A stretch of DNA of 20,421 nt, taken from a virus (taxonomy: Duplodnaviria; Heunggongvirae; Uroviricota; Caudoviricetes). Position 1 is the first letter of the stretch, and every line of letters starts with the position of its first letter. Positions 1-19,582 of the stretch are shown here, piece by piece. The stretch is taken from IMG/VR virus record IMGVR_UViG_2654587509_000002; one strand, 5' to 3'. The notes below the pieces were generated by a model that worked only from the letters and a program-made list of their open reading frames with translations, searched no databases and was not told where the DNA came from. A program made the position numbers and the translations under genes.

Positions 1-59
1 GTCATCCTGTTTACCTCTTTCTCAGGGAGTTTAGTCTCCAGGATTCCCGGGGCGGTTCA
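1..59 (-). mobile_element. IS629 (IS3 family) left terminus; body of the element lies upstream of the window, inverted relative to the copy at 9112
   Basis: Bases 1-60 are the exact reverse complement of 9111-9170 (IRL TGAACCGCCCCGGGAATCC... through the orfA start). Confidence 0.85.
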
Positions 60-302
60 GTATTTCCCCGATACCTTGTGTGCAAATTGCATCAGATAGT
101 TGATAGCCTTTTGTTTGTCGTTCTGGCTGAGTTCGTGCTTACCACAGAATGCAGCCATTCCGAATCCGGCTTGTGATTGCGCCATCCCCATAGCAGCCAT
201 CACATCAGTACCGGAAAGAGAGTCAGAAGCCGTAGCCCGTGGTGAGTCGCTCATCATCGGGCTTTTTGGCGAATGAAATTTAGCTACGCTTTCGAGTCTC
301 AT
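57..302 (-). pseudogene. Q: Late antiterminator Q, N-terminal 81 codons only, truncated at the IS629 junction
   Basis: Translation [28 protein letters not shown]...KVSGKY matches the lambda Q N-terminus as I recall it; the frame runs into the IS terminus and stops at TGA 57-59. Full-length Q is about 207 aa. Confidence 0.85.
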
Positions 303-964
303 GCGCCTTCTCCCTGTACCTGAATCAATGTGAGGTTTCCGCAGAACACTGCGCCGGTATCGATATACATCTGGTTGGCAAACTTGAGTGGTTTCACTGC
401 TGGCGTATGACCAAAGATGAACGTGTCCGCACCTTTGATTTCTTTCACGATCCCGTCTTGTGAGTTGCTGATTCGTTCGCGGTTCCAGATTACCTGCTGA
501 TGATCAACTGGTTTTCCAAACTCGTATTCGTCACAAGGATAATCGGCGTGGCAGATGACATATTTTTTATCTTTGCTCACCAGTTCGATGATTAACGGAA
601 GTTCATCTGCTTTATGGGCAAGAGCTTTAGCCAGAATTTCTTTGTCGTAATCGAGATTAAAGAACCATCCACCGCCATTAAGCAGCCAGTGATTAACGTT
701 TCCACGCTCTGATAAGCCATCAATCATCATTTGCTCATGGTTTCCACGTACAGCTCTGAACCAGGGGAATGTGATTAATTCCAGGCATTCGACGTTCTCT
801 GCACCACGATCAACCAAATCGCCCACCGAGATAAGCAGGTCTTTTTTGTTGTCGAATCCAATCGTATCCAGTTTGTTCATCAGGTTCGTGTAGCATCCGT
901 GCAGATCGCCAACTACCCAAATATTTCGGTATTTGCTGCCATCAATTTTTTCGTAATAGCGCAT
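299..964 (-). CDS. ninI: Ser/Thr protein phosphatase (lambda NinI / orf221 type)
   Basis: 221 aa from [24 protein letters not shown] with GDLVDRG and GNHE metallophosphatase motifs; the 246-aa ORF is trimmed to the internal ATG at 964. Confidence 0.9.
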
Positions 965-1148
965 CTCTTTCACTCCATCCGCGATGAACCATAAGAACAT
1001 CGTTGACGATGGCGTGCATTTTCCCGTCTTTATCATCAACGTATTTTCTGACCGTACCGCGACTACATTTCAGTCTGCGTGCTACTTCTGTCTGGTTTCC
1101 GTATGCTTCAACGAGCATGTCTGGAATGGTTTTTACTGAGAACGTCAT
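942..1148 (-). CDS. ninH: NinH
   Basis: 68 aa [33 protein letters not shown]..., matching lambda NinH in length and sequence as recalled; overlaps the ninI start. Confidence 0.85.
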
Positions 1149-1756
1149 GCGGCCTCACTTCTGCTATTTCGCAGGTCTTTGAGTTTCTGTTGGTACTCTG
1201 CCTTGATCGCCTTGCACTCTTCGACAGTCCAGCGATGGCGGCTATGGTTTGATTCGATTTCGTCTACTGCTTCCTGCCCGATGCGGTTAATCAGTTCGAC
1301 GCGATACGGAACGAGATTTCCGCTTTTGTGCTGGTTGCACACCACGCATTGCTTGTGAATATTGCGTTCATCAAATCGGAGTTGAGGTGCCGCAGCAGTT
1401 GTCCGGTAATGTCCGGCATCCCACTGAGCAGACGTGAGCGTTCCGCACGAGATACATGGTAAGTCGCGGTCTCTTTCTCTGATGAAGGCGTTTACAGCTT
1501 GTTGGGCTTGTTTAATCCAGTAACTGCGGGGCTTTAAGGCGAGTTTTCGAATCTTCAGTTTATCTTTCTGTTTCTGCTCCTCTCGTCGTCGTTTCTTCTC
1601 TGCTGCTTTTTCCGCTTTTTCGCGTTCTTTGCTTCGTCGTTCCAGTGCTATCTTTGTTCCACACTCTGGAGAGCACCACCACTGATTAGCGAATGCAGGG
1701 TGAAACCATTCCCGACATTCTTCGTTTTTACATCGTCTTCGCGCTTGTTTAGCCAT
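1145..1756 (-). CDS. ninG: NinG (Rap) recombination endonuclease
   Basis: 203 aa; Cys-rich N-terminus (CKNEEC...CSPEC) and a basic coiled region; length and position as in lambda ninG. Confidence 0.85.
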
Positions 1757-2025
1757 TATGGTTCGCTCCAGTAATTCTCAATTGCAGCAGCCATTCTCTG
1801 CATCCACTCTGCCAGCTTTAACGCGGCTTCTCTTTCAGAACCACATTTAGGGAAATCCTTCATTTCCATGCTGGCCTTATATGTTCTGAATGCCAGGTCT
1901 CCGGTAATAACCAGCTCCTGATCAAGCACCGAGCGTTTATTCCGGTGTTGAACGTAATAGACAGATTCAGTCCGCATTTCTTCTCTGTCTTTTTTGAAGG
2001 AAATAAGCTCAGAGAAATCACTCAT
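1756..2025 (-). CDS. Hypothetical protein, 89 aa, nin region
   Basis: Intact ORF filling the gap between ninF and ninG with 1-nt and 8-nt overlaps to its neighbours; no counterpart recalled in lambda. Confidence 0.5.
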
Positions 2026-2194
2026 CGTCTTCTTCCTCGTACATTGAGCTATTCGGATCGCTCATCAGTTCTGCGCAGCAGTGCTCACACACATGAACTT
2101 CCAGCACATGCAGCTTCTGACCGCAGTTAGCGCACGTTAAAGCCCGCTCGACGCTTTCTTTCTGGTATTGAAGAGATTGGGATGGGCTAAGCAT
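2018..2194 (-). CDS. ninF: NinF-like small zinc-finger protein
   Basis: Hand translation from ATG at 2194: [44 protein letters not shown]..., 58 aa with a CxxC...CxxC motif; below the 60-aa ORF-track cutoff. Confidence 0.7.
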   Translation of the reverse strand: MLSPSQSLQYQKESVERALTCANCGQKLHVLEVHVCEHCCAELMSDPNSSMYEEEDDE

Positions 2195-2546
2195 TATTGG
2201 CGTCCTGCATCATGAGAAAGACAATCATGGCGGCGCGGAGGGAATTTTCATGTATAGCTCGCTTAGATTTACAGTCGGCCACACCACGTGCACCCCACTC
2301 GTCTTCATCGAGATTGATGATGCTAATCCTGTACTTCTCAATAATCGGCCATGAGGCGCTAGGATCATTGCAGTAGTCAGGCAAAGGGTTTAATGGCTCA
2401 AAAGTTGTATCAGCATTTCCGTAATACCATTTGTTGGTGTTATTCCCTGATGTTTCCGGTTTACATGCCCAAAGGCCTTTAAAAATTATGTCTCCTACCA
2501 TTCTGTTAATTTCAAAATCACTTAACTGTGAATAATCCATTGTCAT
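2187..2546 (-). CDS. Hypothetical protein, 119 aa, nin region
   Basis: ORF with ATGA overlap to the ninE stop (start [15 protein letters not shown]...); no confident family assignment. Confidence 0.5.
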
Positions 2547-2719
2547 TTCCTCGCACGATGTCTTAGCCACCGGATATCCCACAGGTGAGCCGTGTAATTG
2601 AAGGTTTTTACGTCAGATTCTTTTGGGATTGGCTTGCGTTTATTTCTGGAGCGTTTCGTTGGAAGGTATTTGCAGTTTTCGCAGATGATGTCGGTGATAC
2701 TTCGTCGCTGTCGTCTCAT
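2543..2719 (-). CDS. ninE: NinE
   Basis: 58 aa [58 protein letters not shown], recalled as lambda NinE; internal start within the 88-aa ORF. Confidence 0.75.
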
Positions 2720-3243
2720 GCCGCCCTCCTGACGCCCTGCCCGATCGCCATCAATGCCGCTTTGGATACGGTAGTAAACATCCGTCGAGGACTGATGAAC
2801 GGTCGCCAAATCAGCAGCATGGAACCTTTGCTGTTTCCCTTCTTCTCCAGCCCTGTCGATGGTTCGATAAAATTAATCCGTCCATCAGTGATAATACGAA
2901 CTTCGTCAACACTCTCCAGAGCCTTGCTGAACCATCCGACAGACATATCCTCTGGCACAAGCATCACTACCGTCTGTCGCTGTTGTATGCACTGCTCAGC
3001 GGCTTTTTCCACCCACGGCCTGATATTGCTGTACGGTGGGTTATTCCAGATTGCACCGTGGCTTACCCACTCAGAATTGAGCGCGTCGTCGGCCTCAGTT
3101 AACCAGTGAGCGCACAGAGCATTTTTGTCGCTCGCTGCCGAATCCAGCCAGAATCCAAACTCAATATCCAGTGCATCAAAAAGCCAAAGCGGCGTTTGCC
3201 AGCAGTCCTTGTCGTGTGCTGGCGTATTTGATTTGATAGTCAT
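2716..3243 (-). CDS. Phage Dam-type DNA N6-adenine methyltransferase
   Basis: 175 aa from [31 protein letters not shown]...; NPPY catalytic motif (AIWNNPPYS); occupies the lambda ninC position; ATGA overlap with the ninB stop. Confidence 0.8.
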
Positions 3244-3680
3244 GCAGCCCGATCTCCCCATCTCGCTTTCCACTCCAGAGCCAGTCTCGCTTCGTCTGAC
3301 CACTTAACGCCACGCTCTGTACCGAATGCCTGTATAAGCTCTAATAGCTCCGCAAATTCGCCTACACGCATCCTGCTGGTTGACTGGCCTATTACCACAA
3401 AGCCATTCCCGGCAAGGTTAGGAACAACATCCTGCTGCTTTAATGCTGCGGTAAACACACACTTCCAGCTTTCTGCATCCAGCCAGCGACCATGCCATTC
3501 AACCTGACGAGAGACGTCACCTAAGCAGGCCCATAGCTTCCTATTTTGGTCTAAGCTGCGGTTGCGTTCCTGAATGGTTACTACGATTGGTTTGGTTGGG
3601 TCTGGAAGGATTTGCTGTACTGCGTGAATAGCGTTTTGCTGATGTGCTGGAGATCGAATTTCAAAGGTTAGTTTTTTCAT
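3240..3680 (-). CDS. ninB: NinB (Orf) recombination mediator
   Basis: 146 aa from MKKLTFEIRSPAHQQNAIHAVQQILPDPTKP...; matches lambda NinB as recalled. Confidence 0.9.
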   Translation of the reverse strand: MKKLTFEIRSPAHQQNAIHAVQQILPDPTKPIVVTIQERNRSLDQNRKLWACLGDVSRQVEWHGRWLDAESWKCVFTAALKQQDVVPNLAGNGFVVIGQSTSRMRVGEFAELLELIQAFGTERGVKWSDEARLALEWKARWGDRAA

Positions 3681-3696
3681 GACTTCCCTCTCCCCC

Positions 3697-3727
3697 AAAT
3701 AAAAAGGCCTGCGATTACCAGCAGGCC
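3697..3727 (-). terminator. Rho-independent terminator at the tR2 position, between ren and ninB
   Basis: Minus-strand transcript forms stem GGCCUGC / loop / GCAGGCC (3706-3727) followed by a U-run (plus-strand A-run 3697-3705). Confidence 0.6.
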
Positions 3728-3753
3728 TGTTATTAGCTCAGTAATGTAGATGG

Positions 3754-4044
3754 TCATCTTTTAACTCCATATACCGCCAATACCCGTTTCATCGCGGCAC
3801 TCTGGCGACACTCCTTAAAAATCAGGTTCGTGCTCATCTTTCCTTCCCGTTCTTCCCTGGTAGCAAACCGGTAATACACCGTTCGCCAGACCTTACCTTC
3901 GATAACCAGAAGACCTGCCCGTGCCATTTTAGCCGCGGCCTGATTTATGCTGGTTACTGTTGCGCCTGTTAGCGCGGCAACGTCCGGCGCACAGAAGCTA
4001 TTATGCGTCCCCAGGTAATGAATAATTGCCTCTTTGCCCGTCAT
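3754..4044 (-). CDS. ren: Ren
   Basis: 96 aa MTGKEAIIHYLGTHNSFCAPDVAALTG...; length and sequence as recalled for lambda Ren; directly downstream of P. Confidence 0.85.
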   Translation of the reverse strand: MTGKEAIIHYLGTHNSFCAPDVAALTGATVTSINQAAAKMARAGLLVIEGKVWRTVYYRFATREEREGKMSTNLIFKECRQSAAMKRVLAVYGVKR

Positions 4045-4742
4045 ACACTTGCTCCTTTCAGTCCGAACTTAGCTTTAATTTCTGCGATCTTCGCCAGAGC
4101 CTGTGCACGATTTAGAGGTCTACCGCCCATAACAGGAAGTTGTTTTACTGGTTCAGGTATCGTCTCACCACGGTTAATTCGCGCTGTCATACAGGTCAGT
4201 TCATCGGCAGCCTTGCGCCGTAATTCCGCATCAGTAAGCGCATTGGCCCGCATGTTCTGATACAGGTTGGTAACCAGCCAGTAGTGCGCGTTTGATTTCC
4301 ACGGATAAGACTCCGCATCCGGATACAGGCCTCGCTTCCGGCAATACTCGTAAACCATATCAACCAGCTCGCTGACGTTTGGCAGTCCGGCGATAACGGA
4401 TGCTTCTTCCCGGCACCATGCAACAAACTGCCCGGGTGATGGCAGAAATGGTCGATTCTGCCGACGGGCTACGCGCATTCCTGCGTTAACCTGTTCCATC
4501 GTGGTGATCCCGTTTTCCCGAAAAGCCAGAACCCACTGGCGACGGATTTCGTTCACTTCGTTCTGGTCACGGTTAGCCAGGCTCGCCGGGAAAGTTGCCA
4601 GTAACTGGCTGAACACACCGTTGATGATCTGCGCTACCTGCTGTACCTGCGGCTTTTCGTCGTACTGTTCCGGCATGTTGTTGGCGATCCGACGCATCTG
4701 CTCACGGTCAAAGTTAACCATCTGTGCGGCGATGTTTTTCAT
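4041..4742 (-). CDS. P: Replication protein P (DnaB helicase loader)
   Basis: 233 aa MKNIAAQMVNFDREQMRRIANNMPEQYDEKPQ...; lambda P length; ATGA overlap with O. Confidence 0.95.
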   Translation of the reverse strand: MKNIAAQMVNFDREQMRRIANNMPEQYDEKPQVQQVAQIINGVFSQLLATFPASLANRDQNEVNEIRRQWVLAFRENGITTMEQVNAGMRVARRQNRPFLPSPGQFVAWCREEASVIAGLPNVSELVDMVYEYCRKRGLYPDAESYPWKSNAHYWLVTNLYQNMRANALTDAELRRKAADELTCMTARINRGETIPEPVKQLPVMGGRPLNRAQALAKIAEIKAKFGLKGASV

Positions 4743-5638
4743 AGATCCACCCCGTAAATCCAGTCTGTGTTTGTCAGGTCGAGTTTTGGTTTGCTGGCTG
4801 TCACGACTGCCTGTTGCTTGTTACGGTTGATTTCGAGCTGGGTCCACTTGTCGCGGAGTTTGGCCGGACTAAGCACGTTACCGGACCAGAAGTTGTCCTG
4901 GCATGCCCAGCGGAACAGCACGCACATGTCGCGGTGGTTACGTCCGTCACGTTCACGCATCAGGCGGATATCGTTAGCCCACCCTGCAAAATTCGGTTTT
5001 CTGGCTGATGGCGCGATGGTCTTCACCATGTCAAACATCCACTCTGCGGCGGTCAGGTCTTCTGCTGTCCCCCACTTGCTGCCGCTCTGAATTGCAGCAT
5101 CCGGTTTCACCACAGAAAGATCGTTTTCTGGCTGGTCAGAGGATTCGCCAGAATTCTCTGACGAATAATCTTTTCTTTTTTCTTTTGTAATAGTGTCTTT
5201 TGTGTCCCTCTGTTTTGAGGGATAGCAATCCCCCAATTTGAGGGATGTTTTATCCCTCGTTTTAGGGGATTTTCCCTCGTTTTGAGGGATACACCATTCT
5301 GAGATGTTTTTATTTGGTCCAAACATGCCGCCTTGCTGCTTGATAATATTCATTCTGACGAGTTCTAACTTGGCTTCATTGCACCGTTTGACGGGTAACT
5401 TTGTAATCTCGCTAAGTTGAGAATCGGTGACTCTGTCCATTGGTTTATTCCACCCATAGGTTTTACGCAGAATGGCAAGCAGCACTTTAAACTGTCGCTT
5501 GGTCAGATCTGCGCCCGAATAAGCCTCAAGCAGCATATTTGATAGTCTGGCGTAACCATCATCGAGATCTGCCACATTACGCTCCTGTCCGGCAAAGTTA
5601 CCTCTGCCGAAGTTGAGTATTTTTGCTGTATTTGTCAT
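4739..5638 (-). CDS. O: Replication initiator O
   Basis: 299 aa MTNTAKILNFGRGNFAGQERNVADLDD...; contains the origin iterons internally, as in lambda. Confidence 0.95.
   Translation of the reverse strand: MTNTAKILNFGRGNFAGQERNVADLDDGYARLSNMLLEAYSGADLTKRQFKVLLAILRKTYGWNKPMDRVTDSQLSEITKLPVKRCNEAKLELVRMNIIKQQGGMFGPNKNISEWCIPQNEGKSPKTRDKTSLKLGDCYPSKQRDTKDTITKEKRKDYSSENSGESSDQPENDLSVVKPDAAIQSGSKWGTAEDLTAAEWMFDMVKTIAPSARKPNFAGWANDIRLMRERDGRNHRDMCVLFRWACQDNFWSGNVLSPAKLRDKWTQLEINRNKQQAVVTASKPKLDLTNTDWIYGVDL
5165..5290. repeat. Lambda-type replication origin: four 19-bp iterons plus the adjacent AT-rich tract, inside O
   Basis: Four spaced copies of tccctc-N7-gagggat between about 5206 and 5290 (for example tccctctgttttgagggat, ttccctcgttttgagggat) and the A/T tract ttttcttttttcttttgtaatag at 5166-5192. 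Confidence 0.85.
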
Positions 5639-5670
5639 AATGACTCCTGTTGATAGATCCAGTAATGACC

Positions 5671-5964
5671 TCAGAACTCCATCTGGATTTGTTCAGAACG
5701 CTCGGTTGCCGCCGGGCGTTTTTTATTGGTGAGAATCGCAGCAACTTGTCGCGCCAATCGAGCCATGTCGTCGTCAACGACCCCCCATTCAAGAACAGCA
5801 AGCAGCATTGAGAACTTTGGAATCCAGTCCCTCTTCCACCTGCTGATCTGCGACTTATCAACGCCCACAGCTTCCGCTGTCTTCTCAGTTCCAAGCATTG
5901 CGATTTTGTTAAGCAACGCACTCTCGATTCGTAGAGCCTCGTTGCGTTTGTTTGCACGAACCAT
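5671..5964 (-). CDS. cII: Transcriptional activator cII
   Basis: 97 aa MVRANKRNEALRIESALLNKIAMLGTEKTAEAVGVDKSQISRWKRDWIPKF...; internal start of the 117-aa ORF. Confidence 0.95.
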   Translation of the reverse strand: MVRANKRNEALRIESALLNKIAMLGTEKTAEAVGVDKSQISRWKRDWIPKFSMLLAVLEWGVVDDDMARLARQVAAILTNKKRPAATERSEQIQMEF

Positions 5965-6043
5965 ATGTAAGTATTTCCTTAGATAACAATTGATTGAATG
6001 TATGCAAATAAATGCATACACCATAGGTGTGGTTTAATTTGAT

Positions 6044-6075
6044 GCCCTTTTTCAGGGCTGGGATGTGTAAGAGCG
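6044..6075 (-). promoter_or_regulatory. nutR (boxA and boxB) N-utilisation site
   Basis: On the minus strand, boxA CGCTCTTAC (plus 6067-6075) precedes the boxB hairpin GCCCTGAAAAAGGGC (plus 6044-6058), between cro and cII. Confidence 0.75.
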
Positions 6076-6083
6076 GGAATATC

Positions 6084-7439
<1,356 letters not shown>

Positions 7440-7489
7440 TCCCCACCTCAATCTCGATAACCAAAAAACAAACTATTTTCCGTTTAAAA

Positions 7490-7558
7490 ACAATGGAGTT
7501 TGTTTTTCATGCCCCTTTTTTACAATATTTCTTGTTTACAACATACAATCTTTCTTGT
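7490..7558. promoter_or_regulatory. Left operator (three 434-type 14-bp sites) with the pL region
   Basis: ACAATGGAGTTTGT (7490-7503), ACAATATTTCTTGT (7522-7535) and ACAATCTTTCTTGT (7545-7558), each ACAA-N6-TTGT, with the same spacing as OR. Confidence 0.75.
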
Positions 7559-7604
7559 AATTTTAAGCCATCAGCAGGACGCACTGACCACCATTGAAGG
7601 TGAT

Positions 7605-7634
7605 GCTCTTAAAAATTAAGCCCTGAAGAAGGGC
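7605..7634 (+). promoter_or_regulatory. nutL (boxA-like and boxB)
   Basis: GCTCTTAAA (7605-7613) followed by the boxB hairpin GCCCTGAAGAAGGGC (7620-7634), upstream of N. Confidence 0.8.
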
Positions 7635-7792
7635 AGCATTCAAAGCAGAAGGCTTTGGGGTGTGTGATACGAAACGAAGCATTGGCCGGAAGTGCGAATC
7701 CGGATTAGCTGCAAATGAGCCAATCGTGGGGTGTTTTCGTTCAGGACTACGACTCACACACACCACCAAAGCTAACTGACAAGAGAATCCAG

Positions 7793-8116
7793 ATGGATGC
7801 ACAAACACGCCGCCGCGAACGTCGCGCAGAGAAACAGGCTCAATGGAAAGTAGCAAATCCCCTGTTGGTTGGGGTAAGCGCAAAACCAGTTAACCGCCCT
7901 ATTCTCTCGCTGAATCGCAAACCGAAATCACGAGTAGAAAGCGCACTGAATCCGATAGACCTTACAGTGCTGGCTGAATACCACGAACAGATTGAAAGCA
8001 ACCTGCAACGTATTGAGCGCAAGAATCAGCGCACATGGTACAGCAAGCCTGGCGAACGCGGCATAACATGCAGTGGACGCCAGAAAATTAAGGGAAAATC
8101 GATTCCTCTTACCTAG
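7793..8116 (+). CDS. N: Antitermination protein N
   Basis: 107 aa MDAQTRRRERRAEKQAQWK...; arginine-rich motif at the N-terminus; lambda N length; the ORF-track 5' extension is rejected. Confidence 0.95.
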   Translation: MDAQTRRRERRAEKQAQWKVANPLLVGVSAKPVNRPILSLNRKPKSRVESALNPIDLTVLAEYHEQIESNLQRIERKNQRTWYSKPGERGITCSGRQKIKGKSIPLT

Positions 8117-8671
8117 TTACTTAGATATTGGCCTTGGCTTTATCTCAATATTATATGGATCATAGCTGGCAACTAATTCAGTCCAGTAAATATCCTCAAT
8201 AGGGAATAATATATGCTTCCCGTTCCATCGGGAAAAAGTTTTGTTCAACACACCAAGCTCAATCAACTCACTAATGTATGGGAATTGTTTTGATGTAACC
8301 ACATACTTCCTGCCTTCATTAAGGGCTGCGCACAAAACCATAGATTGCTCTTCTGTAAGGTTTTGAATTACCGATCGCACTTTATCGTTTTGCATCTTAA
8401 TGCGTTTTCTTAGCTTAAATCGCTTATATTTGGCGCTGGCAATAGCTGATAATCGATGCACATTAATTGCTAGCGAAAATGCAAGAGCAAAGACGAAAAC
8501 ATGCCACACATGAGGAATACCGATTCTCTCATTAACATATTCAGGCCAGTTATCTGGGCTTAAAAGCAGAAGTCCAACCCAGATAACGATCATATACATG
8601 GTTCTCTCCAGAGGTTCATTACTGAACACTCGTCCGAGAATAACGAGTGGATCCATTTCTATACTCATCAA
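8117..8671 (-). CDS. sieB: Superinfection exclusion protein B (SieB)
   Basis: 184 aa MMSIEMDPLVILGRVFSNEPLERTMYMIVIWVGLLLL... with hydrophobic segments; transcribed opposite to N, as in lambda. Confidence 0.8.
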   Translation of the reverse strand: MMSIEMDPLVILGRVFSNEPLERTMYMIVIWVGLLLLSPDNWPEYVNERIGIPHVWHVFVFALAFSLAINVHRLSAIASAKYKRFKLRKRIKMQNDKVRSVIQNLTEEQSMVLCAALNEGRKYVVTSKQFPYISELIELGVLNKTFSRWNGKHILFPIEDIYWTELVASYDPYNIEIKPRPISK

Positions 8672-8795
8672 ACTGTAGGGGTTGTAATAGTTTATCCGAT
8701 TTCTCGCTGTAGGGGTACACGAGAACCACCGAGCCTGATGTGGTTAAAAGACAGGCACAATCTTTACTACCGCAATCCACTATTTAAGGTGATAT

Positions 8796-8882
8796 ATGGA
8801 AGAAGAATTTGAAGAGTTCGAAGAGCATCCGCAGGATGTAATGGAACAGTACCAGGACTATCCGTATGACTACGACTATTGA
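8796..8882 (+). CDS. Small acidic ORF (lambda orf28-like), 28 aa
   Basis: Hand translation MEEEFEEFEEHPQDVMEQYQDYPYDYDY; overlaps the ral start; below the ORF-track size cutoff. Confidence 0.5.
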   Translation: MEEEFEEFEEHPQDVMEQYQDYPYDYDY

Positions 8883-9045
8883 TAAGAATCAATGGTGTGG
8901 ACAATTCAAGCGATGCAATGGATGCAAGCTGCAATCGGAATGCATGGTTAAGCCTGAAGAAATGTTTCCTGTAATAGAAGATGGGAAATATGTCGATAAA
9001 TGGGCAATACGAACGACGGCAATGATTGCCAGAGAACTTGGTTAA
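8866..9045 (+). CDS. ral: Restriction alleviation protein Ral, apparently shortened by 7 residues
   Basis: Hand translation MTTTIDKNQWCGQFKRCNGCKLQSECMVKPEEMFPVIEDGKYVDKWAIRTTAMIARELG then TAA; the in-frame continuation QNNKAA-TGA resembles the lambda Ral C-terminus as recalled. Confidence 0.8.
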   Translation: MTTTIDKNQWCGQFKRCNGCKLQSECMVKPEEMFPVIEDGKYVDKWAIRTTAMIARELG

Positions 9046-9165
9046 CAGAACAACAAAGCTGCCTGATAGTGGCCTTTATTTTTGGCATAAATAACAGAAT
9101 AAACACTGCACTGAACCGCCCCGGGAATCCTGGAGACTAAACTCCCTGAGAAAGAGGTAAACAGG

Positions 9166-9492
9166 ATGACTAAAAATACTCGTTTTTCCCCTGAAGTCCG
9201 TCAACGGGCAGCCCGTATGGTTCTGGAAAGTCAGGGCGAATATGACTCACAATGGGCGACAATTTGTTCCATTGCTCCAAAGATTGGCTGTACGCCGGAG
9301 ACTCTGCGTGTCTGGGTTCGCCAGCATGAGCGGGATACCGGGGGCGGTGATGGAGGGCTCACCACCGCTGAACGTCAGCGTCTGAAAGAGCTGGAGCGTG
9401 AAAATCGTGAACTGCGCCGCAGTAACGATATCCTTCGCCAGGCTTCCGCTTATTTTGCGAAGGCGGAGTTCGACCGCCTCTGGAAAAAATAA
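9166..9492 (+). CDS. IS629 transposase OrfA (HTH and leucine-zipper subunit)
   Basis: 108 aa [55 protein letters not shown]...; ends in an A6 run just before orfB. Confidence 0.9.
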
Positions 9493-10379
9493 TGCCGCTG
9501 CTGGATAAGCTGCGTGAGCAGTACGGGGTCGGACCGCTATGCAGCGAACTGCATATTGCCCCGTCAACGTATTACCACTGTCAGCAACAGCGACATCATC
9601 CGGATAAACGCAGTGCCCGTGCGCAGCGCGATGACTGGCTGAAGAAAGAGATACAGCGCGTATACGATGAAAATCACAAGGTATACGGTGTGCGTAAAGT
9701 CTGGCGTCAGTTGTTACGGGAAGGAATCAGAGTGGCCAGATGCACTGTGGCACGTCTCATGGCGGTTATGGGACTTGCCGGTGTTCTCCGGGGTAAAAAG
9801 GTCCGCACTACCGTCAGCCGGAAAGCCGTTGCCGCATGCGACCGCGTAAACCGTCAGTTCGTGGCAGAACGTCCAGACCAGTTGTGGGTGGCTGATTTTA
9901 CCTGGGTAAGCACATGGCAGGGCTTCGTTTATGTGGCGTTCATCATTGATGTGTTCGCCGGATACATCGTGGGATGGCAGGTCTCATCATCCATGGAAAC
10001 AACATTCGTGCTGGATGCACTGGAGCAGGCGTTGTGGGCCCGTCGGCCGTCCGGCACAATCCATCACAGTGATAAAGGTTCTCAGTATGTATCGCTGGCC
10101 TACACGCAGCGGCTTAAGGAAGCCGGATTACTGGCATCAACAGGGAGTACTGGCGACTCGTATGACAACGCGATGGCGGAGAGCATCAATGGTCTTTACA
10201 AAGCGGAGGTAATACACCGTAAGAGCTGGAAAAACCGTGCAGAAGTGGAACTGGCCACACTCACGTGGGTGGACTGGTATAACAATCGACGATTGCTGGA
10301 AAGGCTGGGCCATACTCCCCCGGCAGAAGCAGAAAAAGCTTATTATGCTTCCATCGGAAACGATGATCTGGCAGCCTGA
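9492..10379 (+). CDS. IS629 transposase OrfB (DDE catalytic domain), normally expressed as an OrfAB fusion by -1 frameshift
   Basis: 295 aa, in the -1 frame relative to orfA and overlapping its stop; IS3-family integrase-core motifs (HSDKGSQY..., ...ESINGLYKAE). Confidence 0.9.
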   Translation: MPLLDKLREQYGVGPLCSELHIAPSTYYHCQQQRHHPDKRSARAQRDDWLKKEIQRVYDENHKVYGVRKVWRQLLREGIRVARCTVARLMAVMGLAGVLRGKKVRTTVSRKAVAACDRVNRQFVAERPDQLWVADFTWVSTWQGFVYVAFIIDVFAGYIVGWQVSSSMETTFVLDALEQALWARRPSGTIHHSDKGSQYVSLAYTQRLKEAGLLASTGSTGDSYDNAMAESINGLYKAEVIHRKSWKNRAEVELATLTWVDWYNNRRLLERLGHTPPAEAEKAYYASIGNDDLAA

Positions 10380-10421: not shown

Positions 10422-10610
10422 CTGCGTGTGTGGGTTCGTCAGCATGAGCGGGATACCGGGAGTGGTGATGGTGGACTCACCACCGCTGAACGTCAGCGTC
10501 TGAAAGAGCTGGAACGTGAAAATCGTGAACTGCGCCGCAGTAACGATATCCTTCGCCAGGCTTCCGCTTATTTTGCGAAGGCGGAGTTCGACCGCCTCTG
10601 GAAAAAATAA
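10422..10610 (+). pseudogene. IS629 orfA remnant (C-terminal 62 codons, no native start)
   Basis: In-frame continuation of orfA codons from the truncation point; the ORF track shows it only via a GTG start at 10428. Confidence 0.8.
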
Positions 10611-11497
10611 TGCCGCTGCTGGATAAGCTGCGTGAGCAGTACGGGGTCGGACCGGTATGCAGTGAACTGCATATTGCCCCGTCAACGTATTACCACTGTC
10701 AGCAACAGCGACATCATCCTGATAAACGCAGTGCCCGTGCTCAGCGCGATGACTGGCTGAAGAGAGAGATACAGCGCGTATACGATGAAAATCATCAGGT
10801 GTACGGTGTGCGTAAAGTCTGGCGCCAGTTGTTACGCGAAGGTATCAGGGTGGCCAGATGTACAGTGGCGCGCCTCATGGCGGTTATGGGACTTGCCGGT
10901 GTTCTCCGGGGTAAAAAGGTCCGTACTACCGTCAGCCGGAAAGCCGTTTCCGCAGGCGACCGCGTAAACCGTCAGTTCGTGGCAGAACGTCCTGACCAGC
11001 TGTGGGTGGCTGATTTTACTTACGTCAGCACATGGCAGGGCTTCGTCTATGTGGCGTTCATCATTGATGTGTTTGCCGGATGTATCGTGGGGTGGCGAGT
11101 CTCATCGTCTATGGAAACGACATTCGTGCTGGATGCACTGGAGCAGGCGTTGTGGGCCCGTCGGCCGTCCGGCACAGTCCATCACAGTGATAAAGGTTCT
11201 CAGTATGTATCACTGGCCTATACGGAGCGACTAAAAGAAGCAAAACTGCTGGCATCAACAGGGAGTACAGGTGACTCGTATGACAACGCGATGGCGGAGA
11301 GCATCAATGGTCTTTACAAAGCGGAGGTAATACACCGTAAGAGCTGGAAAAACCGTGCAGAAGTGGAACTGGCCACACTCACGTGGGTGGACTGGTATAA
11401 CAATCGACGATTGCTGGGAAGGCTGGGTCATATCCCTCCGGCAGAAGCAGAAAAAGCTTATTATGCTTCCATCAGAAACGATGATCTGGCAGCCTGA
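10610..11497 (+). CDS. IS629 OrfB, second copy (intact frame; expression doubtful because orfA is truncated)
   Basis: 295 aa, about 95% identical to the first OrfB with scattered substitutions (for example K52R, W138Y, Y158C). Confidence 0.8.
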   Translation: MPLLDKLREQYGVGPVCSELHIAPSTYYHCQQQRHHPDKRSARAQRDDWLKREIQRVYDENHQVYGVRKVWRQLLREGIRVARCTVARLMAVMGLAGVLRGKKVRTTVSRKAVSAGDRVNRQFVAERPDQLWVADFTYVSTWQGFVYVAFIIDVFAGCIVGWRVSSSMETTFVLDALEQALWARRPSGTVHHSDKGSQYVSLAYTERLKEAKLLASTGSTGDSYDNAMAESINGLYKAEVIHRKSWKNRAEVELATLTWVDWYNNRRLLGRLGHIPPAEAEKAYYASIRNDDLAA

Positions 11498-11539: not shown

Positions 11540-11953
11540 GGGCTGTATTCCAATGCCACGTTGACAGATGCTGACCCTCAGGCAATTGAAGATGCCATTA
11601 ATGACCTCGAAGACATGATGGCAGCATGGCAGGCTAAAGGTATCGAGCTTGGATATCAGTTTGCTGATACAGAAAACGGCATCATGCCGTTACCTGACGA
11701 TGATTCAGGTATCCCTGCGTGGGCAAATGATGGCGTCGCTTTGAAGCTCGCTGTGCAAGTGTGCATGGATAACGTCATTCAGCCGTCAGATGCTCTCCTT
11801 ACCGCTGCTGACAGCGCATATCAGACAATCTGCATCGCTTTAACCAAAATACCACCACTTGAGCGGCGAAATGACATGCCTCGCGGTAGTGGTAACAAAA
11901 GCGCGTTTACGTGGAATCGGTTTTACATCGAGAAAGATGATCCAAGTACGTGA
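11540..11953 (+). pseudogene. gp4: P22-like gene 4 (head completion / tail accessory protein), 5'-truncated by IS629
   Basis: Frame is open from the IS boundary (GLYSNATLTDADPQAIEDAINDLEDMMAAW...), 137 codons remaining; no start codon with a ribosome-binding site; followed by gene 10 as in P22. Confidence 0.7.
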
Positions 11954-11962
11954 GGTGAATAA

Positions 11963-12067
11963 ATGCCGATTCAGCAACTTCCGCTTATGAAAGGTGTCGG
12001 CAAAGACTTTCGAAACGCCGACTATATCGACTATCTGCCAGTGAATATGCTGGCAATTTTGATATAA
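11963..12067 (+). pseudogene. Orphaned 5' fragment of P22-like gene 10 (34 codons)
   Basis: GAGGTGA ribosome-binding site then [34 protein letters not shown]-stop; first 31 residues are homologous to the start of the intact gene 10 at 12636 ([31 protein letters not shown]). Confidence 0.7.
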
Positions 12068-12103
12068 TAAGTACATGAAAAATCGAAACTTTAAGGAGTA
12101 GAT

Positions 12104-12688
12104 ATGCTTTCTGAGAATGCTAAAGATATACCTGGATTTGAAGGTGTTTATGCCGTAACAGAAGATGGCAGGGTATATTCTCACTCACGTGTTGTTAAGG
12201 CTGCGCATGGCAGCACGCAACTCAGAAAGGGGCGCTGGTTAAAGCCTAAAATCAATCAGGGAAGGGTGCTTTATAATATCGGAGCAAAATGGACTTTTGC
12301 CCATCGAATCGTTGCAATGACATTCCTGCCAAATCCTGAAAACAAGCCTCAGGTAAATCATATTGATGGCAATCCACTCAATAATAACGTCAATAATCTT
12401 GAGTGGTGCACTCAAAGCGAAAACATCAAACATGCATACGCCACCGGATTAAAGAAACCAATCAAGTTTTTCGGAACCAAGCACCCAAAACACAAGTTGA
12501 GTGATGACGATGTTCTTGCAATCAAGTCATCAAAAGAAAGCTTGTCAGTAATTGCGGCTAAGTACGGGATATCTAAGACCTGGGCAAGTAGGCTAAAGCG
12601 TGATGCTAACTGGGTTCATATAAAGGTTGATTCCAATGGCAATACAACAACTACCACTAATGAAGGGATTGGGGAAAAGTGCGGTTAA
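12104..12688 (+). CDS. HNH homing-endonuclease-like protein (NUMOD4-like N-terminus plus HNH motif)
   Basis: 194 aa; AAGGAG ribosome-binding site; GFEGVYAVTEDGRVYS (NUMOD4-like), HRIVAMTF...VNHIDGNPLNNNVNNLEWCTQSENIKHA (HNH); AT-rich; 3' end overlaps the gene 10 start. Confidence 0.8.
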   Translation: MLSENAKDIPGFEGVYAVTEDGRVYSHSRVVKAAHGSTQLRKGRWLKPKINQGRVLYNIGAKWTFAHRIVAMTFLPNPENKPQVNHIDGNPLNNNVNNLEWCTQSENIKHAYATGLKKPIKFFGTKHPKHKLSDDDVLAIKSSKESLSVIAAKYGISKTWASRLKRDANWVHIKVDSNGNTTTTTNEGIGEKCG

Positions 12689-14054
12689 TGCTGATTATAT
12701 AGACCAACTTCCAGTCAATCTTTTAGCTACGCCCAAGGAGGTGTTGAATTCATCGGGATATCTTCGCTCATTCCCGGGCATTGCCAAACGTTCTGATGTG
12801 AACGGCGTATCGCGAGGCGTCGAGTACAACATGGCGCAGAGTGCTGTTTATCGCGTGTGTGGTGGCAAGCTGTACAAAGGAGAAAGTGAAGTTGGTGATG
12901 TTGCCGGAAGTGGTCGCGTATCAATGGCACATGGTCGGACATCACAGGCGGTAGGCGTTAATGGTCAACTGGTCGAATACCGCTATGATGGCACGGTTAA
13001 AACCGTCTCAAACTGGCCTACGGACAGCGGATTCACGCAGTATGAGTTAGGTTCGGTCCGTGACATTACGCGTTTACGTGGGCGTTATGCGTGGTCAAAA
13101 GACGGTACTGATTCATGGTTTATCACTGACCTTGAAGACGAATCGCATCCTGACCGCTACAGCGCACAATATCGGGCAGAATCGCAGCCGGACGGTATCA
13201 TCGGCATCGGAACATGGCGAGATTTCATCGTCTGCTTTGGTTCATCGACGATTGAATATTTTTCCCTGACTGGTGCAACCACCGTTGGTGCCGCTTTGTA
13301 TGTCGCACAGCCATCACTAATGGTGCAAAAAGGAATCGCCGGGACTTACTGCAAAACGCCATTCTCTGATTCATATGCGTTCATCAGCAATCCGGCAACA
13401 GGTGCGCCGTCTGTGTACATCATCGGCTCCGGTCAGGTGTCACCAATCGCCAGTGCGAGCATTGAGAAAATCCTCCGCTCCTACACTGCTGATGAACTGG
13501 CTGATGGCGTGATGGAATCGTTGCGGTTTGATGCTCATGAGTTGCTGATTATCCATCTTCCGCGTCACGTCCTCGTGTACGACGCATCTTCAAGCGCCAA
13601 TGGTCCGCAATGGTGTGTGCTTAAAACAGGCCTGTATGACGATGTGTACCGCGCTATCGACTTCATTTACGAAGGCAATCAGATAACGTGCGGCGATAAG
13701 CTGGAATCGGTGACCGGGAAATTGCAGTTCGATATCAGCAGTCAGTATGGGCTTCAACAGGAACACCTTCTGTTTACTCCGTTGTTCAAAGCGGATAACG
13801 CCAGATGCTTCGATCTGGAGGTGGAATCGTCCACTGGCGTAGCTCAGTACGCCGACCGCCTGTTCCTCTCTGCGACCACTGACGGCATAAATTACGGTCG
13901 TGAGCAGATGATTGAGCAGAATGAACCGTTCGTTTACGACAAACGCGTTTTGTGGAAGCGAGTCGGGCGCATCAGGAAAAATGTCGGCTTCAAATTGCGC
14001 GTTATCACGAAGTCACCTGTCACTCTGTCTGGCTGCCAGATAAGGATTGAGTAA
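12636..14054 (+). CDS. gp10: P22-like gene 10 tail accessory factor
   Basis: 472 aa from ATG 12636, the same length as P22 gp10; position between genes 4 and 26. Confidence 0.8.
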
Positions 14055-14755
14055 TGGCTGATTCGAATCTCAACACCCCTGTTATTGTGCAGGCGACGCG
14101 GCTCGATACATCAATCCTTCCACGCAATATATTCAGCCAGTCTTACCTGCTGTATGTCATTAATCAGGGGGCTGATGTCGGCGCAATTGCCGGGAAGGCA
14201 AATCAGGCTGGTCAGGGCGCTTACGATGCTCAGGTGAAAAACGATGAACAGGACGTCGAACTGGCTGATCACGACGCAAGAATCACCGCAAACACAAAAG
14301 CGATAAATCTACTTGAGGTCAGGTTAACAACTGCCGAAGGGAAGATAGTCGTACTGCGTAGCGATGTTGATTACTTGCTGGATGAGGTTATCGATATTCA
14401 GGCGCATCTGGTCACTGTTGACCAAAGACTGGATGACGTAGAAAACGATGTCTCTGGCATTAAGAGTGATTACGTATCGAAAACCGTAACCGAATTGCAG
14501 TCTCTTGAGTCACCGCTGGATGTAAAAACATCATATTCAGTTGATGGAATTCAGGTTGTTGGAGCAAGAAATACCGGATGGACTGCAGCCACAGGTACGC
14601 CACTTCTTGGCTCATTCAACGCTAACCAGTCATACACTGTCGGCACTACGTACACACAATCCGAAGTCGCAGCTCTCGCTACAGGTTTGCAGCAGGCGCG
14701 GCAGCGTATTCTGGCGCTTGAAACGGCACTTAGATTACATGGGCTGATTGACTGA
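14054..14755 (+). CDS. gp26: P22-like gene 26 tail needle
   Basis: 233 aa [36 protein letters not shown]... with a heptad-rich coiled core and C-terminal ...[14 protein letters not shown], as recalled for P22 gp26. Confidence 0.85.
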
Positions 14756-15210
14756 TGATTACATTCAAACCAACGCGAAACATCGACCTGATAGAAGCAG
14801 TCGGAAATCACCCTGACATTATCGCCGGGAGCAACAACGGCGATGGATACGACTACAAACCTGAATGCCGTTACTTTGAGGTGAGCGTGCACGGGCAGTT
14901 CGGCGGCATTGTTTACTATCAGGAGATTCAGCCGCTGACATTCGATTGCCACGCCATGTACCTGCCAGAGGTTCGTGGATTCAGCAAGGAAATCGGTCTG
15001 GCGTTCTGGCGATACATTCTGACTAACACCACCGTTCAGTGCGTCACATCGTTCGCTGCACGCAAATTCCGCCACGGGCAGATGTACTGCGCAATGATTG
15101 GCCTTAAGCGTGTAGGAACCATCAAGAAATACTTCAAAGGCGTGGATGACGTGACTTTTTACAGTGCTACACGCGAAGAACTAATCGAATTCCTGAATCA
15201 CGGGAGATAG
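14755..15210 (+). CDS. gp14: P22-like gene 14 protein
   Basis: 151 aa; synteny between gene 26 and gene 7; ATGA-type overlap with the gene 26 stop. Confidence 0.7.
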   Translation: MITFKPTRNIDLIEAVGNHPDIIAGSNNGDGYDYKPECRYFEVSVHGQFGGIVYYQEIQPLTFDCHAMYLPEVRGFSKEIGLAFWRYILTNTTVQCVTSFAARKFRHGQMYCAMIGLKRVGTIKKYFKGVDDVTFYSATREELIEFLNHGR

Positions 15211-15212
15211 CC

Positions 15213-15905
15213 ATGTTATATGCATTTAAGCTGGGCAGAAAACTGCGCGGCGAGGAACCTTATTGCCATGAAAAAGGCGGGAAAGGTGGCAGCTCTGATA
15301 AAAGCGCAAAGTATGCAGCAGAAGCTCAGAAGTATGCCGCAGACCTGCAAAATCAGCAGTTCAACACCATCATGAACAACCTGAAACCGTTTACTCCTCT
15401 GGCTGAGAAGTATGTCGGCAGCCTCGAGAACTTATCGTCTCTGGAGGGGCAAGGTCAGGCGCTTAACCAGTATTACAACTCTCAGCAGTATAAAGACCTT
15501 GCAGGTCAGGCTCGCTATCAGAGTCTGGCTGCAGCGGAAGCAACAGGTGGATTGGGTTCCACCGCAACCAGTAATCAGTTAGCAACAATCGCACCAACGC
15601 TTGGTCAGCAATGGCTATCTGGTCAGATGAACAACTACCAGAATCTGGCAAATGTTGGTCTTGGCGCACTGCAAGGTCAGGCAAACGCCGGGCAGACATA
15701 TGCCAACAACATGAGTCAGATTTCTCAGCAAAGTGCGGCTCTTGCAGCGGCAAATGCCAACAGACCATCAGCAATGCAATCTGCTATTGGCGGAGGTGCG
15801 TCTGGTGCTATTGCTGGGGCTGGACTTGCGAAATTAATTGGTTCATCCACTCCGTGGGGGGCTGCGATCGGCGGCGGTCTTGGTCTGCTTGGCTCGTTGT
15901 TTTAA
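15213..15905 (+). CDS. gp7: P22-like gene 7 ejection (internal virion) protein
   Basis: 230 aa MLYAFKLGRKLRGEEPYC...; Q/N/A-rich with a Gly-rich hydrophobic C-terminus; length and order as P22 gp7. Confidence 0.8.
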   Translation: MLYAFKLGRKLRGEEPYCHEKGGKGGSSDKSAKYAAEAQKYAADLQNQQFNTIMNNLKPFTPLAEKYVGSLENLSSLEGQGQALNQYYNSQQYKDLAGQARYQSLAAAEATGGLGSTATSNQLATIAPTLGQQWLSGQMNNYQNLANVGLGALQGQANAGQTYANNMSQISQQSAALAAANANRPSAMQSAIGGGASGAIAGAGLAKLIGSSTPWGAAIGGGLGLLGSLF

Positions 15906-15914
15906 GGGGTAATC

Positions 15915-17330
15915 ATGGCTACGTGGCAACATGGTATTAATTCTGGTGGTTTTCTGGCTGGCATCGGTACGCAAAATGAGAATGCGCCAAAGGCAAGCGA
16001 CATTAACGCAACGCTTGGTCTGATCCGCGAAAACAATGAGTTGGCTCGCTCAGGTGCAAATAACGTTGGTCTGACCGCGTTACGTGGTCTGGCTGGAGTT
16101 GCTGATATTTACAATCAGGAACAGCAACAGAAAGCGATTAGTGCGTTCAATAAGGTTCACGCTGATGCATGGGCTTCTGGTGATCCATCGGGACTATTTA
16201 AGTTTGCCCAGGAAAATCCAGCGTTTGTTGCACAGGCACAACAGGCGTTTTCTGGTCTTAATGATCAGCAACGCAACGATATGGGCGATTTAGCCATGAG
16301 GGCTAACGTCGCTCTTTCTCAGGGACCGGAAGCCTACAGTAAATTCATTACTGACAACAAGGACAGGTTAAATCGCGTTGGTGCTAATGCTGACTGGATG
16401 ATTCAGACAGGTATCCAGAATCCAGAGCAGCTATCACACATGCTGACTACTATGTCTCTCGGTGCGCTTGGACCAGAAAAGGCGTTTGCTGTTCAGGATA
16501 AGATGGCTGGTCGTGAAATTGACCGAGGCAGGCTGGCAGAGACAATCCGCAGCAATCAGGCTGGTGAAGCACTTCAGGCGAGAGGGCAAAACCTTTCCTA
16601 TCAGTCAGCAATGACTGGGCACAATATCGCAGCACAACGCTTGGCTCTGGATCAGCAAGAGTTCGGGTTTAAGATGCAGCAAGCGCAGGAAAAGGCTCAG
16701 CAGTTGATTAGTGAAGCACCTAAGCTGTCAGTAAACATGGAAAAAGGCATCGAGACGGCTGTAAACAATGCCACAGCATCATCAAACTCAGCCAATTCTA
16801 TGAGTGCGCTTGCTCAACAGTTCAGAGCAGAAAAACCAACGACAGGTTTGTTCGGTAACGCACAGAACATGTTCGCAAAACTTACCGGAAGCGATACGAC
16901 ATTGCGTGATTTGCGCATCCGCCAAAATGCCCTTGTTAACAGTCAGGTTCTTAAATTCCTACCTCCCGGCCCAGCAACGGATAAAGACGTTGAGATCGTT
17001 CGGCAGGGTGCGCCAACTGACATGGATAACCCTGAGACGGTCGCAAGATGGCTTGATGCAATGGCAAACCTTGAGCGACGAAACGCGCAGTTTAATGAGT
17101 TTAAAGCTGAGTGGATGAGCGCGAATGGCAATCCTGGACAATCGCGTAATGGCGGTCAGATATTGGGGTTGGATGTTAAAAAAGGTGAATCATTGGGGAG
17201 TGCCGTTAAGCGGTATATGTCATTGAATACTGACGCAGCGCCAGCACAAGATTCGACACCTTCAGGAGAACCACGGAATCAGGTTGGATCATATACCTCA
17301 AAATCAGTCATTCAATTTACGGTGGAATGA
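15915..17330 (+). CDS. gp20: P22-like gene 20 ejection protein
   Basis: 471 aa, identical in length to P22 gp20; synteny. Confidence 0.8.
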
Positions 17331-19168
17331 TGAAAGTAACTGCAAACGGTAAGACATTTACCTTCCCTGATGGTACGAGCACGGAAGATATTGGAGCCGC
17401 CATTGATGATTATTTTGCTGGTCAGGTTGTTCAGCAACAAACAGTTAATCAGGCCAATAATGCACCAGTACGTGAAGAACCATCATTGATGCAACAAGCT
17501 GGCGATTGGCTCACTGGTGGTCAAAGTGCAGGGCAAATTGCAGAACAGGCTGGTCGTGGTCTGGTAAACATACCATTTGACGTATTGCAGGGTGGCGCAA
17601 GTCTGATTAATGCAATCAGTCAGGGGCTTGGTGGGCCAAAAGTTTTGGATGATGTTTATCGTCCAGTAGACAAACCGACAGACCCATACGCACAAGCCGG
17701 TGAAACAATTGGTGGGTATTTAGTTCCAGGAGTTGGAACGGCAGGAAGCATGGCTATTGGATCGCTGGCAGAGGCCGCAAATCAGAAAGGCGATTTCGCA
17801 CAAAATGCAGCTAAAAATGCCGGAGTTAACCTTGCCGCTCAGGGTGTTCTTTCCGCAGCAGCAAAGGGAATAGGGCGTGGAATAACGGCTATAAAAGGTG
17901 ATATTGCGCCAGAAGTGGCGAAGAAAATTGCCACATCAGAATCGATGGGCGTGACACCAATGACATCTGATGTTATCCCGCCGAAAAATGCTTTCACTCG
18001 CGGCCTTACTCAGGATGCCGAGGGGGCTTTGCTCGGGACGGGCTCAAAGCGAGCAGAGCAATATGCAACGCGGAGTAAGCTGGTAAGCAATTATTTTGAC
18101 CGTTTTGGTGAGTACAACCCTGATGATGTGGTGAAATCTCTGACCACCACGTTAAGGGGGCGGAAGGATGCCGCTGGCGCTGTTATCAATGACGTCACCA
18201 ATAAAATGGGTAATGCCGCAGTTGATACCACAAATACCATGAATGCTCTGAATACAGCGATCGCAAGACAGGAACGGCTTGGGACGTCTGCCAATCAAAG
18301 CCTGCTTACATCCTTGCGTAACCTACGTGAAGAATTAGCAAACCCTGCAACTGATTTGGATGTTACGTTTGATCTCTTGCGTCAGCACAGAACAGCATTT
18401 AGATCTAATGTTCAGGGAGATGCTATGGTCTTCCCCAACCAGGCAAAAGCAGCTACCAATATGGTAGAGAATGCAATGTCAAAAGACCTTCGTAACGCAG
18501 TTGCTAAAAACCTCGGTGCATCAGACGCAGCAAAATACCTTAAAGCAAATTCCGATTATGCAAACGTTTATAATAAGGTGCTTAATAAAAACATTGCCAA
18601 CAAGCTCAACAAGGCAAGCAGTGAAGCCAGTCCTGAACTTATAAATACCGTTGTATTAAGCAGAAAACCATCTGACGTGAAACGAATCTGGAGCGCACTG
18701 GATGATAAGGGGAAAGATGCTATGCGTGCAGCTTACGTCAGCAAAATAGCGGAAAAGGCCGGGGACTCTCCAGCCAAGTTCATCACTGAAGTTAATAAGC
18801 TGAAATCTCAGTCAGGCGGTGAAATTTACAACACTATTTTTTCTGGAAAGCACATGAAAGAGCTTGATGCTCTTCATGAAGTTCTACAGCAAACAGCAAG
18901 GTCAGACACCGCAAATGTAGTAACTCAGACGGGGCAATCGCAAGCCAACAGGATAAGGACGATTGGCGCAACTGCGACCCTTGGCGTATCAATGGGGCTT
19001 GAGGCTGGTTTTGGTGCAATGATGCGCTTGTATGAGTCCAAAGCAGCAAGGAATATGCTTCTTCGTTTGGCAAACACCAAAGCAGGAACACCAGCCTATG
19101 AAAGAGCGATAAATAACGCTGCGAATGCCATCAGACCGCTGTTTGCTACTGAGGCAACACAGCAGTAA
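17327..19168 (+). CDS. gp16: P22-like gene 16 ejection protein
   Basis: 613 aa (P22 gp16 is about 609 aa); ATGA overlap with gene 20; last gene of the ejection operon. Confidence 0.8.
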
Positions 19169-19192: not shown

Positions 19193-19582
19193 CTAACATT
19201 TTCTTTTTACTTTTCCAACAAAAGCTTTGGTTGAATCCATATTTCCATAACCGGAAATGGTTTTTGACATTAAAACTGTTCCAGTAGGATGTATTACCCA
19301 TGAGTCGATAACGCGTTGAGTTTCGCCATTCGCGCCGATTCCTATGATGGAGTTTTTAGACAATGCTTTGTAAGCCATGCCGCCCGCATCTGTCCCAGAA
19401 TATGTGATGCTGGCATCTTCACCGTTTGTCTTAATGATGAATGTTCCACTAAAACCATCTTCTTCCGGATGGAAATTATTTCGTTCTGAATAGCTTATTC
19501 CGCGCATATCTCCAACGACCCAGCACTCTGCTGTAGCCCCAAAAGATATGAATAAGAACATAGCAGTAAGAAATTGCTTCAC
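19193..19582 (-). CDS. Secreted (periplasmic) protein of unknown function, 129 aa, paralog of the cI-linked gene at 7035
   Basis: GTG start preceded by a strong ribosome-binding site (TAAGGAGGttggcGTG); signal peptide MKQFLTAMFLFISFGATA then ECW; shared motifs with 7035-7439 (ECW[IV]V, TNGED/INGD, Y.ALS, [ST]W.I, STK[AS]FVG.V, C-terminal Cys). Confidence 0.7.
   Translation of the reverse strand: MKQFLTAMFLFISFGATAECWVVGDMRGISYSERNNFHPEEDGFSGTFIIKTNGEDASITYSGTDAGGMAYKALSKNSIIGIGANGETQRVIDSWVIHPTGTVLMSKTISGYGNMDSTKAFVGKVKRKC

Follow-up and report, generated by a model that had tools for sequence, protein, structure and literature searches.

An intact, already characterised phage dam gene in a defective prophage remnant

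The DNA analysed here, referred to throughout as the window, is a stretch of 20,421 nucleotides from a tailed virus of the Caudoviricetes (IMG/VR record IMGVR_UViG_2654587509_000002). It carries an ordinary, characterised phage dam gene, which is real and intact and lies in a broken prophage remnant. The encoded protein is identical at 175 of 175 residues to orf32 (NP_050531) of the Stx2 phage VT2-Sakai, the sole methyltransferase annotated in that phage genome. The product is already known: the enzyme has been named, cloned and assigned to GATC, and thousands of genomes carry the gene under a correct annotation. We consider it highly likely that the gene encodes M.EcoVT2Dam, an orphan, delayed-early GATC methylase that tops up the methylation of phage DNA and is probably silent in the defective remnant. 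As a discovery this carries little weight; the useful points are corrective, and concern the meaning of the label "Dam-type", the motif to be expected in a methylome, the usual occupant of this slot in the nin region, and the defective state of the prophage.

Family, motifs and fold of the Dam protein

The gene and the two segments of its product discussed below are located as follows.

2716..3243, minus strand: dam, a 175-aa phage N6-adenine DNA methyltransferase (assigned from the ORF, PF05869, TIGR01712, identity with VT2-Sakai orf32, and fold)
3031..3042, minus strand: NPPY, residues 68-71 (N68-P69-P70-Y71), catalytic motif IV of N6-adenine methyltransferases
3130..3147, minus strand: LDSAAS, residues 33-38, a motif I-like segment and presumed SAM-binding site

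The reading frame is intact on the minus strand, with its ATG at 3243-3241 and its TGA at 2718-2716. A longer frame with a GTG start (2716..3303, 195 aa) was rejected, because the start in the family models and in all annotated homologues corresponds to the ATG at 3243, the one that shares bases with the stop codon of ninB; an antisense ORF on the plus strand (2585..3109, 174 aa) was likewise discarded, being without support.

An earlier note on this DNA had proposed an N6-adenine methyltransferase with an NPPY motif at 2716-3243, and the domain searches bear this out at exactly these ORF boundaries. In the Pfam scan, the protein matched the Dam family PF05869 with an E-value of 6.4e-65 (218.4 bits versus a cut-off of 28.1), and the match runs end to end, placing residues 4-169 on positions 1-167 of the 169-position profile. 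It also matched the NCBIfam equivalog TIGR01712, "phage N-6-adenine-methyltransferase" (265.9 bits, cut-off 97.05), as well as PHROG 111. Across 24 aligned homologues (59-86% identity), NPPY is invariant, and it is also kept in phage T1 Dam. The same alignment leaves L33, D34 and A36 invariant, D34 lying in an LDxAA segment, and LDSAAS with D34 is presumed on sequence grounds to be the SAM-binding motif I.

When the Dam protein was compared with the PDB sequences by phmmer, no significant match emerged, and the fold was therefore examined by structure prediction. The AlphaFold model has the class I fold of SAM-dependent N6-adenine methyltransferases, in agreement with the fold that the earlier note had put forward as a check; the model has low confidence at residues 31-60, around the presumed SAM-binding motif, and was built on a shallow alignment (the profile search found 2040 relatives, of which the best 120 listed were all at least 57% identical). 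The gene is an orphan: no restriction endonuclease adjoins it, and its neighbours are ninB and ninE, each with a 4-bp overlap.

Identity with M.EcoVT2Dam and the GATC target

The orphan enzyme of VT2-Sa bears the name M.EcoVT2Dam, and its specificity is listed as GATC (PMC6602927); PMC7139368, citing Radlinska & Bujnicki 2001, says of VT-2 that an activity like that of Dam, converting GATC to G(m6A)TC, "has been shown". The GATC assignment for M.EcoVT2Dam is thus drawn from secondary citations and REBASE-derived tables. We considered whether a second VT2-Sakai methyltransferase could be the "real" M.EcoVT2Dam and rejected this, since the annotation lists no other and the one large unannotated candidate, the 299-aa orf4, proved to be a DUF551 protein. 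A protein 100% identical to NP_050531 is also the product of the "dam" gene (CM2) in phage Phi24B. The protein studied here does not differ from M.EcoVT2Dam; its surroundings do, being a defective lambda/imm434-like remnant and not an Stx phage. The local arrangement is shared, as dam lies between ninB and ninE with 4-bp overlaps in VT2-Sakai and HK140 as it does in the window.

The Dam protein of phage T1 (YP_003925) belongs to the same family (PF05869, 236.5 bits) and is 33% identical, NPPY included; by experiment, it methylates GATC in a dam- host (PMC10470545). It is longer than the protein studied here (237 aa versus 175 aa), carries an insertion and is extended at its N terminus, and it comes from a virulent phage and not from a nin region. 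Its annotation notes a similarity to the dam protein of Haemophilus phage HP2. The product of the present gene is accordingly reported to methylate adenine in GATC, through the reports on the identical VT2 protein and on T1 Dam.

The label "Dam-type" should be taken to mean the same target as that of host Dam, not the same family. The host-type enzymes (E. coli Dam, T4 Dam and DpnM; alpha-class) show 8-9% identity to the phage protein in structural alignment, a likeness at the fold level only, and the phage protein is about 100 residues shorter. The Pfam scan gave PF05869 only and no match to the host-type (D12) family, and EcoDam and T4 Dam, which were within the PDB sequences searched by phmmer, produced no significant match. 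According to PMC7139368, homology to the cellular Dam is confined to the T2/T4 enzymes. The product of dam is a functional analogue of host Dam and not a family-level homologue.

Position of dam in the nin region and in the early operon

The following features describe the right arm and the immunity region.

1756..2025, minus strand: 89-aa ORF (PHROG 1258) between ninF and ninG, absent from lambda
2187..2582, minus strand: P22 NinX-like ORF (131 aa, PF10765) between ninE and ninF, absent from lambda
2543..2719, minus strand: ninE (PF05322, E 7e-44; lambda homology 2546..2712); its ATG overlaps the dam TGA as ATGA
3240..3698, minus strand: ninB (orf) (PF05772, E 2.3e-54), 98.7% identical to lambda; its TGA overlaps the dam ATG as ATGA
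3705..3728, minus strand: strong terminator-like hairpin between ren and ninB (8 pairs, 6 of them GC, then a T run)
6406..7038, plus strand: cI repressor of the 434 immunity type (residues 2-70 match the 434 repressor, 133 bits)

Comparison with lambda by blastn divides this part of the window into a mosaic. Lambda sequence occupies 60..1759 (the 5' part of Q, ninI, ninH and ninG), 2023..2160 (ninF), 3240..6077 (ninB-ren-P-O-cII) and 7569..9113 (N-sieB-ral), in addition to ninE, and is interspersed with non-lambda segments at 1760..2022, 2161..2545, 2713..3239 (dam) and 6078..7568, the last being phage 434 immunity within an otherwise 98%-lambda backbone. The nin region had been described as otherwise following lambda; this does not hold, as two further non-lambda genes are present, at 2187..2582 and 1756..2025. 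The lambda match stops at the end of ninB (window 3240 = lambda 41084) and resumes at ninE (window 2712 = lambda 42097), so that dam stands in for both ninC and ninD. The position proposed for the gene, in the place of lambda ninC, was therefore right, but the replacement takes in ninD as well. Lambda NinC (phosphoadenosine phosphosulfate reductase-like) and NinD fill the same ninB-ninE slot and are unrelated to the Dam protein.

The ATGA overlaps would couple the translation of dam to that of ninB and ninE; tight gene packing is typical of nin regions (PMC8022706). The hairpin at 3705..3728 maps to lambda positions of about 40596-40619 and lies upstream of dam in the pR transcript. We take it to be tR2-like, by the place of lambda tR2 between ren and ninB. 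The lambda genes past tR2 are delayed-early: their transcription starts at pR, requires N and is shut off by cI. Because the pR transcript reaches dam only past the tR2-like terminator, the Dam protein would be expected only after loss of the repressor and antitermination by N. In the prophage state, cI is expected from this arrangement to keep pR, and hence dam, silent.

The usual occupant of the ninB-ninE slot

Dam DNA at a nucleotide identity of at least 95% was found in 244 phage records (range 95-99%), which include HK140, HK97, mEp213, Sf101, SfI and many Stx phages, and in 1566 of the 5426 complete E. coli genomes. The E. coli copies are always annotated as phage N-6-adenine-methyltransferase and lie between ninB and ninE. 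In the protein collection, the exact amino acid sequence occurs on at least 1000 contigs. The ninB-dam-ninE layout is present in 1540 of the 5426 E. coli genomes, compared to 149 with lambda ninC (at a coverage of at least 80%), which means that about ten times as many E. coli genomes carry dam as carry lambda ninC; the corresponding numbers of phage records are 244 and 17. The usual occupant of the slot is dam, not the ninC of lambda, and to speak of "replacing ninC" is to take lambda as the standard. The order ren-ninB-dam-ninE, overlaps included, also recurs in HK140, a viable phage.

A defective prophage

The features that bear on the state of the prophage are listed here.

57..302, minus strand: Q', an antiterminator gene broken off after codon 81 by an IS3-family element (lambda homology)
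8866..9045, plus strand: ral, 59-aa allele (PF11058, E 1.7e-43, covering 1-59 of 66), with AAA changed to TAA at codon 60
9166..9492 (orfA) and 9492..10379 (orfB): first IS copy, complete
10428..10610 (orfA) and 10610..11497 (orfB): second IS copy, without the 5' part of orfA

Within Q, the similarity to lambda breaks off at window position 60 (lambda 44128), and positions 1..59 repeat, as reverse complement, the IS3-family (IS629/IS1203-like) end found at 9113..9171; an IS copy thus breaks the Q gene. At the opposite end, the early-left operon gives way just past ral to two tandem IS3-family copies, which extend from 9113 to about 11540. With Q broken by an IS and the left arm closed off by IS copies, what remains is a defective, IS-disrupted remnant of a prophage rather than a phage that could deploy strategies. 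None of int, xis, exo, bet, gam and cIII is present in the window.

The earlier note had also placed ral on the other arm. The gene is indeed there, but in a shortened form, as the premature stop leaves 59 aa versus 66 in lambda; this 59-aa allele was found on 370 contigs and is a circulating variant.

Inverted IS copies flank the whole early region Q'-nin-P-O-imm-N-sieB-ral (60..9113), which suggests an IS-mediated inversion or rearrangement. The junction between Q' and the IS was absent from the complete E. coli genomes and the species-representative genomes, the best E. coli matches spanning 60..500, and none of the E. coli genomes searched covered more than 50% of the window.

The role of the methylation

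The product of dam would be a small, orphan, SAM-dependent N6-adenine methyltransferase that converts GATC to G(m6A)TC. Its most likely role would be to top up the GATC sites of fast-replicating phage DNA, left undermethylated by a limited supply of host Dam. Host Dam leaves the virion DNA of lambda and P22 undermethylated, "possibly because replication outstrips modification" (PMC8022706). Deletion of T1 Dam leads to a smaller burst even in a Dam+ host, and to progeny DNA that is only partly methylated (PMC10470545), a benefit that comes from a 33%-identical enzyme of a virulent phage. For the identical gene of Phi24B, the expression pattern was tied to the lytic cycle and not to stable lysogens. 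A possible pay-off of the topping-up would be that the action of MutH and SeqA on under-methylated DNA is avoided, and protection from GATC-specific restriction in other (non-Dam) hosts may be a side benefit. In the IS-disrupted remnant, dam would probably be silent.

The window contains 47 GATC sites, compared to 80.7 +/- 7.2 expected from dinucleotide-preserving shuffles, and the motif is thus under-represented; prophage regions have been reported to be GATC-poor, in line with this count (PMC6602927). Avoidance of GATC would account for the scarcity no less well than reliance on its methylation, and the two models are not told apart by it.

The gene had been read, together with ral, as one of two anti-restriction strategies, i.e., self-methylation would serve the phage mainly to evade the restriction enzymes of its hosts, and would complement the alleviation of type I restriction by Ral. 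An orphan methyltransferase can shield a phage from the cognate restriction enzyme, MboI failed to cleave fully G(m6A)TC-methylated DNA in the cited assays (including those of PMC10470545), and ral is encoded on the other arm alongside dam; an anti-restriction role of GATC self-methylation in E. coli is plausible. However, GATC is already methylated in E. coli hosts, no GATC-cutting restriction system relevant to dam-bearing phages has been shown, and T1 gained no protection from m6A at GATC against a Dnd system that recognises this site (PMC10470545). Moreover, the ral of this remnant has a premature stop, and the prophage cannot finish a lytic cycle because Q is disrupted. The claim of two strategies is weak in the light of host methylation of GATC, the shortened ral and the defective prophage, and we regard a dedicated anti-restriction function of dam as rather unlikely. 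An effect on the lysogen, through expression of dam in lysogeny that changes the host methylome or supplements host Dam and so stabilises lysogeny, was raised by the Phi24B authors for the identical protein, found in cultures of lysogens; yet the same study tied expression to the lytic cycle, i.e., to a spontaneously induced sub-population, and dam lies behind the cI-repressed pR and a terminator. Among STEC with and without dam copies, only GATC, CTGCAG and a type IIG motif were seen (PMC6602927); between strains 95NR1 and 95JB1, which differ by two dam copies among other things, the sole extra motif was assigned to the type IIG enzyme (PMC6602927). The target is the site of host Dam itself and expression is linked to the lytic cycle, so that the suggested alteration of host methylation patterns is unlikely, and a function of dam in lysogeny is in our judgement very improbable. 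Because the target is the GATC of host Dam, no new motif is expected in a lysogen: a methylome comparison would reveal none, and the search for a new motif, which had been suggested as a way to refute the enzyme, would be negative even with a fully active enzyme and is not a valid refutation.

The enzyme might instead methylate adenines outside or beyond GATC, as the non-specific phage enzymes Hia5 and M.EcoGII do. Small phage adenine methyltransferases of relaxed specificity exist (PMC3299994; Serratia prophage OS31), and host Dam masks GATC in methylomes, such that side activities could be overlooked. Against this, the reports on the identical protein and on its family member T1 Dam give GATC as the target (PMC6602927, PMC7139368, PMC10470545), and strains bearing dam showed no extra motif (PMC6602927); we give such specificity hardly any credence. 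A tie to the non-specific Hia5/Hin1523 enzymes was considered and dropped, as the Hia5 paper names neither VT2 nor HP1 Dam (PMC3299994). It also appears quite improbable that dam has a role beyond duplicating host Dam, whether through a masked or relaxed specificity or by countering methylation-sensitive defence or repair (MutH, SeqA or a GATC-reading system) in lambdoid replication; such a role, if true, would account for the roughly tenfold excess of dam over ninC among E. coli prophages. The preferred reading remains that of a delayed-early enzyme that would top up GATC methylation on replicating phage DNA.

Other features of the window

Modules of two phage types are juxtaposed in the window, P22-like virion genes being found beside the lambda-like early region. 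The virion genes (11561..19168; gp10-like, DNA-transfer/ejection proteins) directly adjoin the IS. A 158-aa ORF without a family match (6963..7439, plus strand) occupies the place of lambda rexAB. This ORF, located beside cI, and another near the end of the virion module (19193..19582, minus strand) encode small predicted secreted proteins, in each of which a hydrophobic leader at the N terminus precedes an "ECW(I/V)V" segment, and the two may be paralogues.
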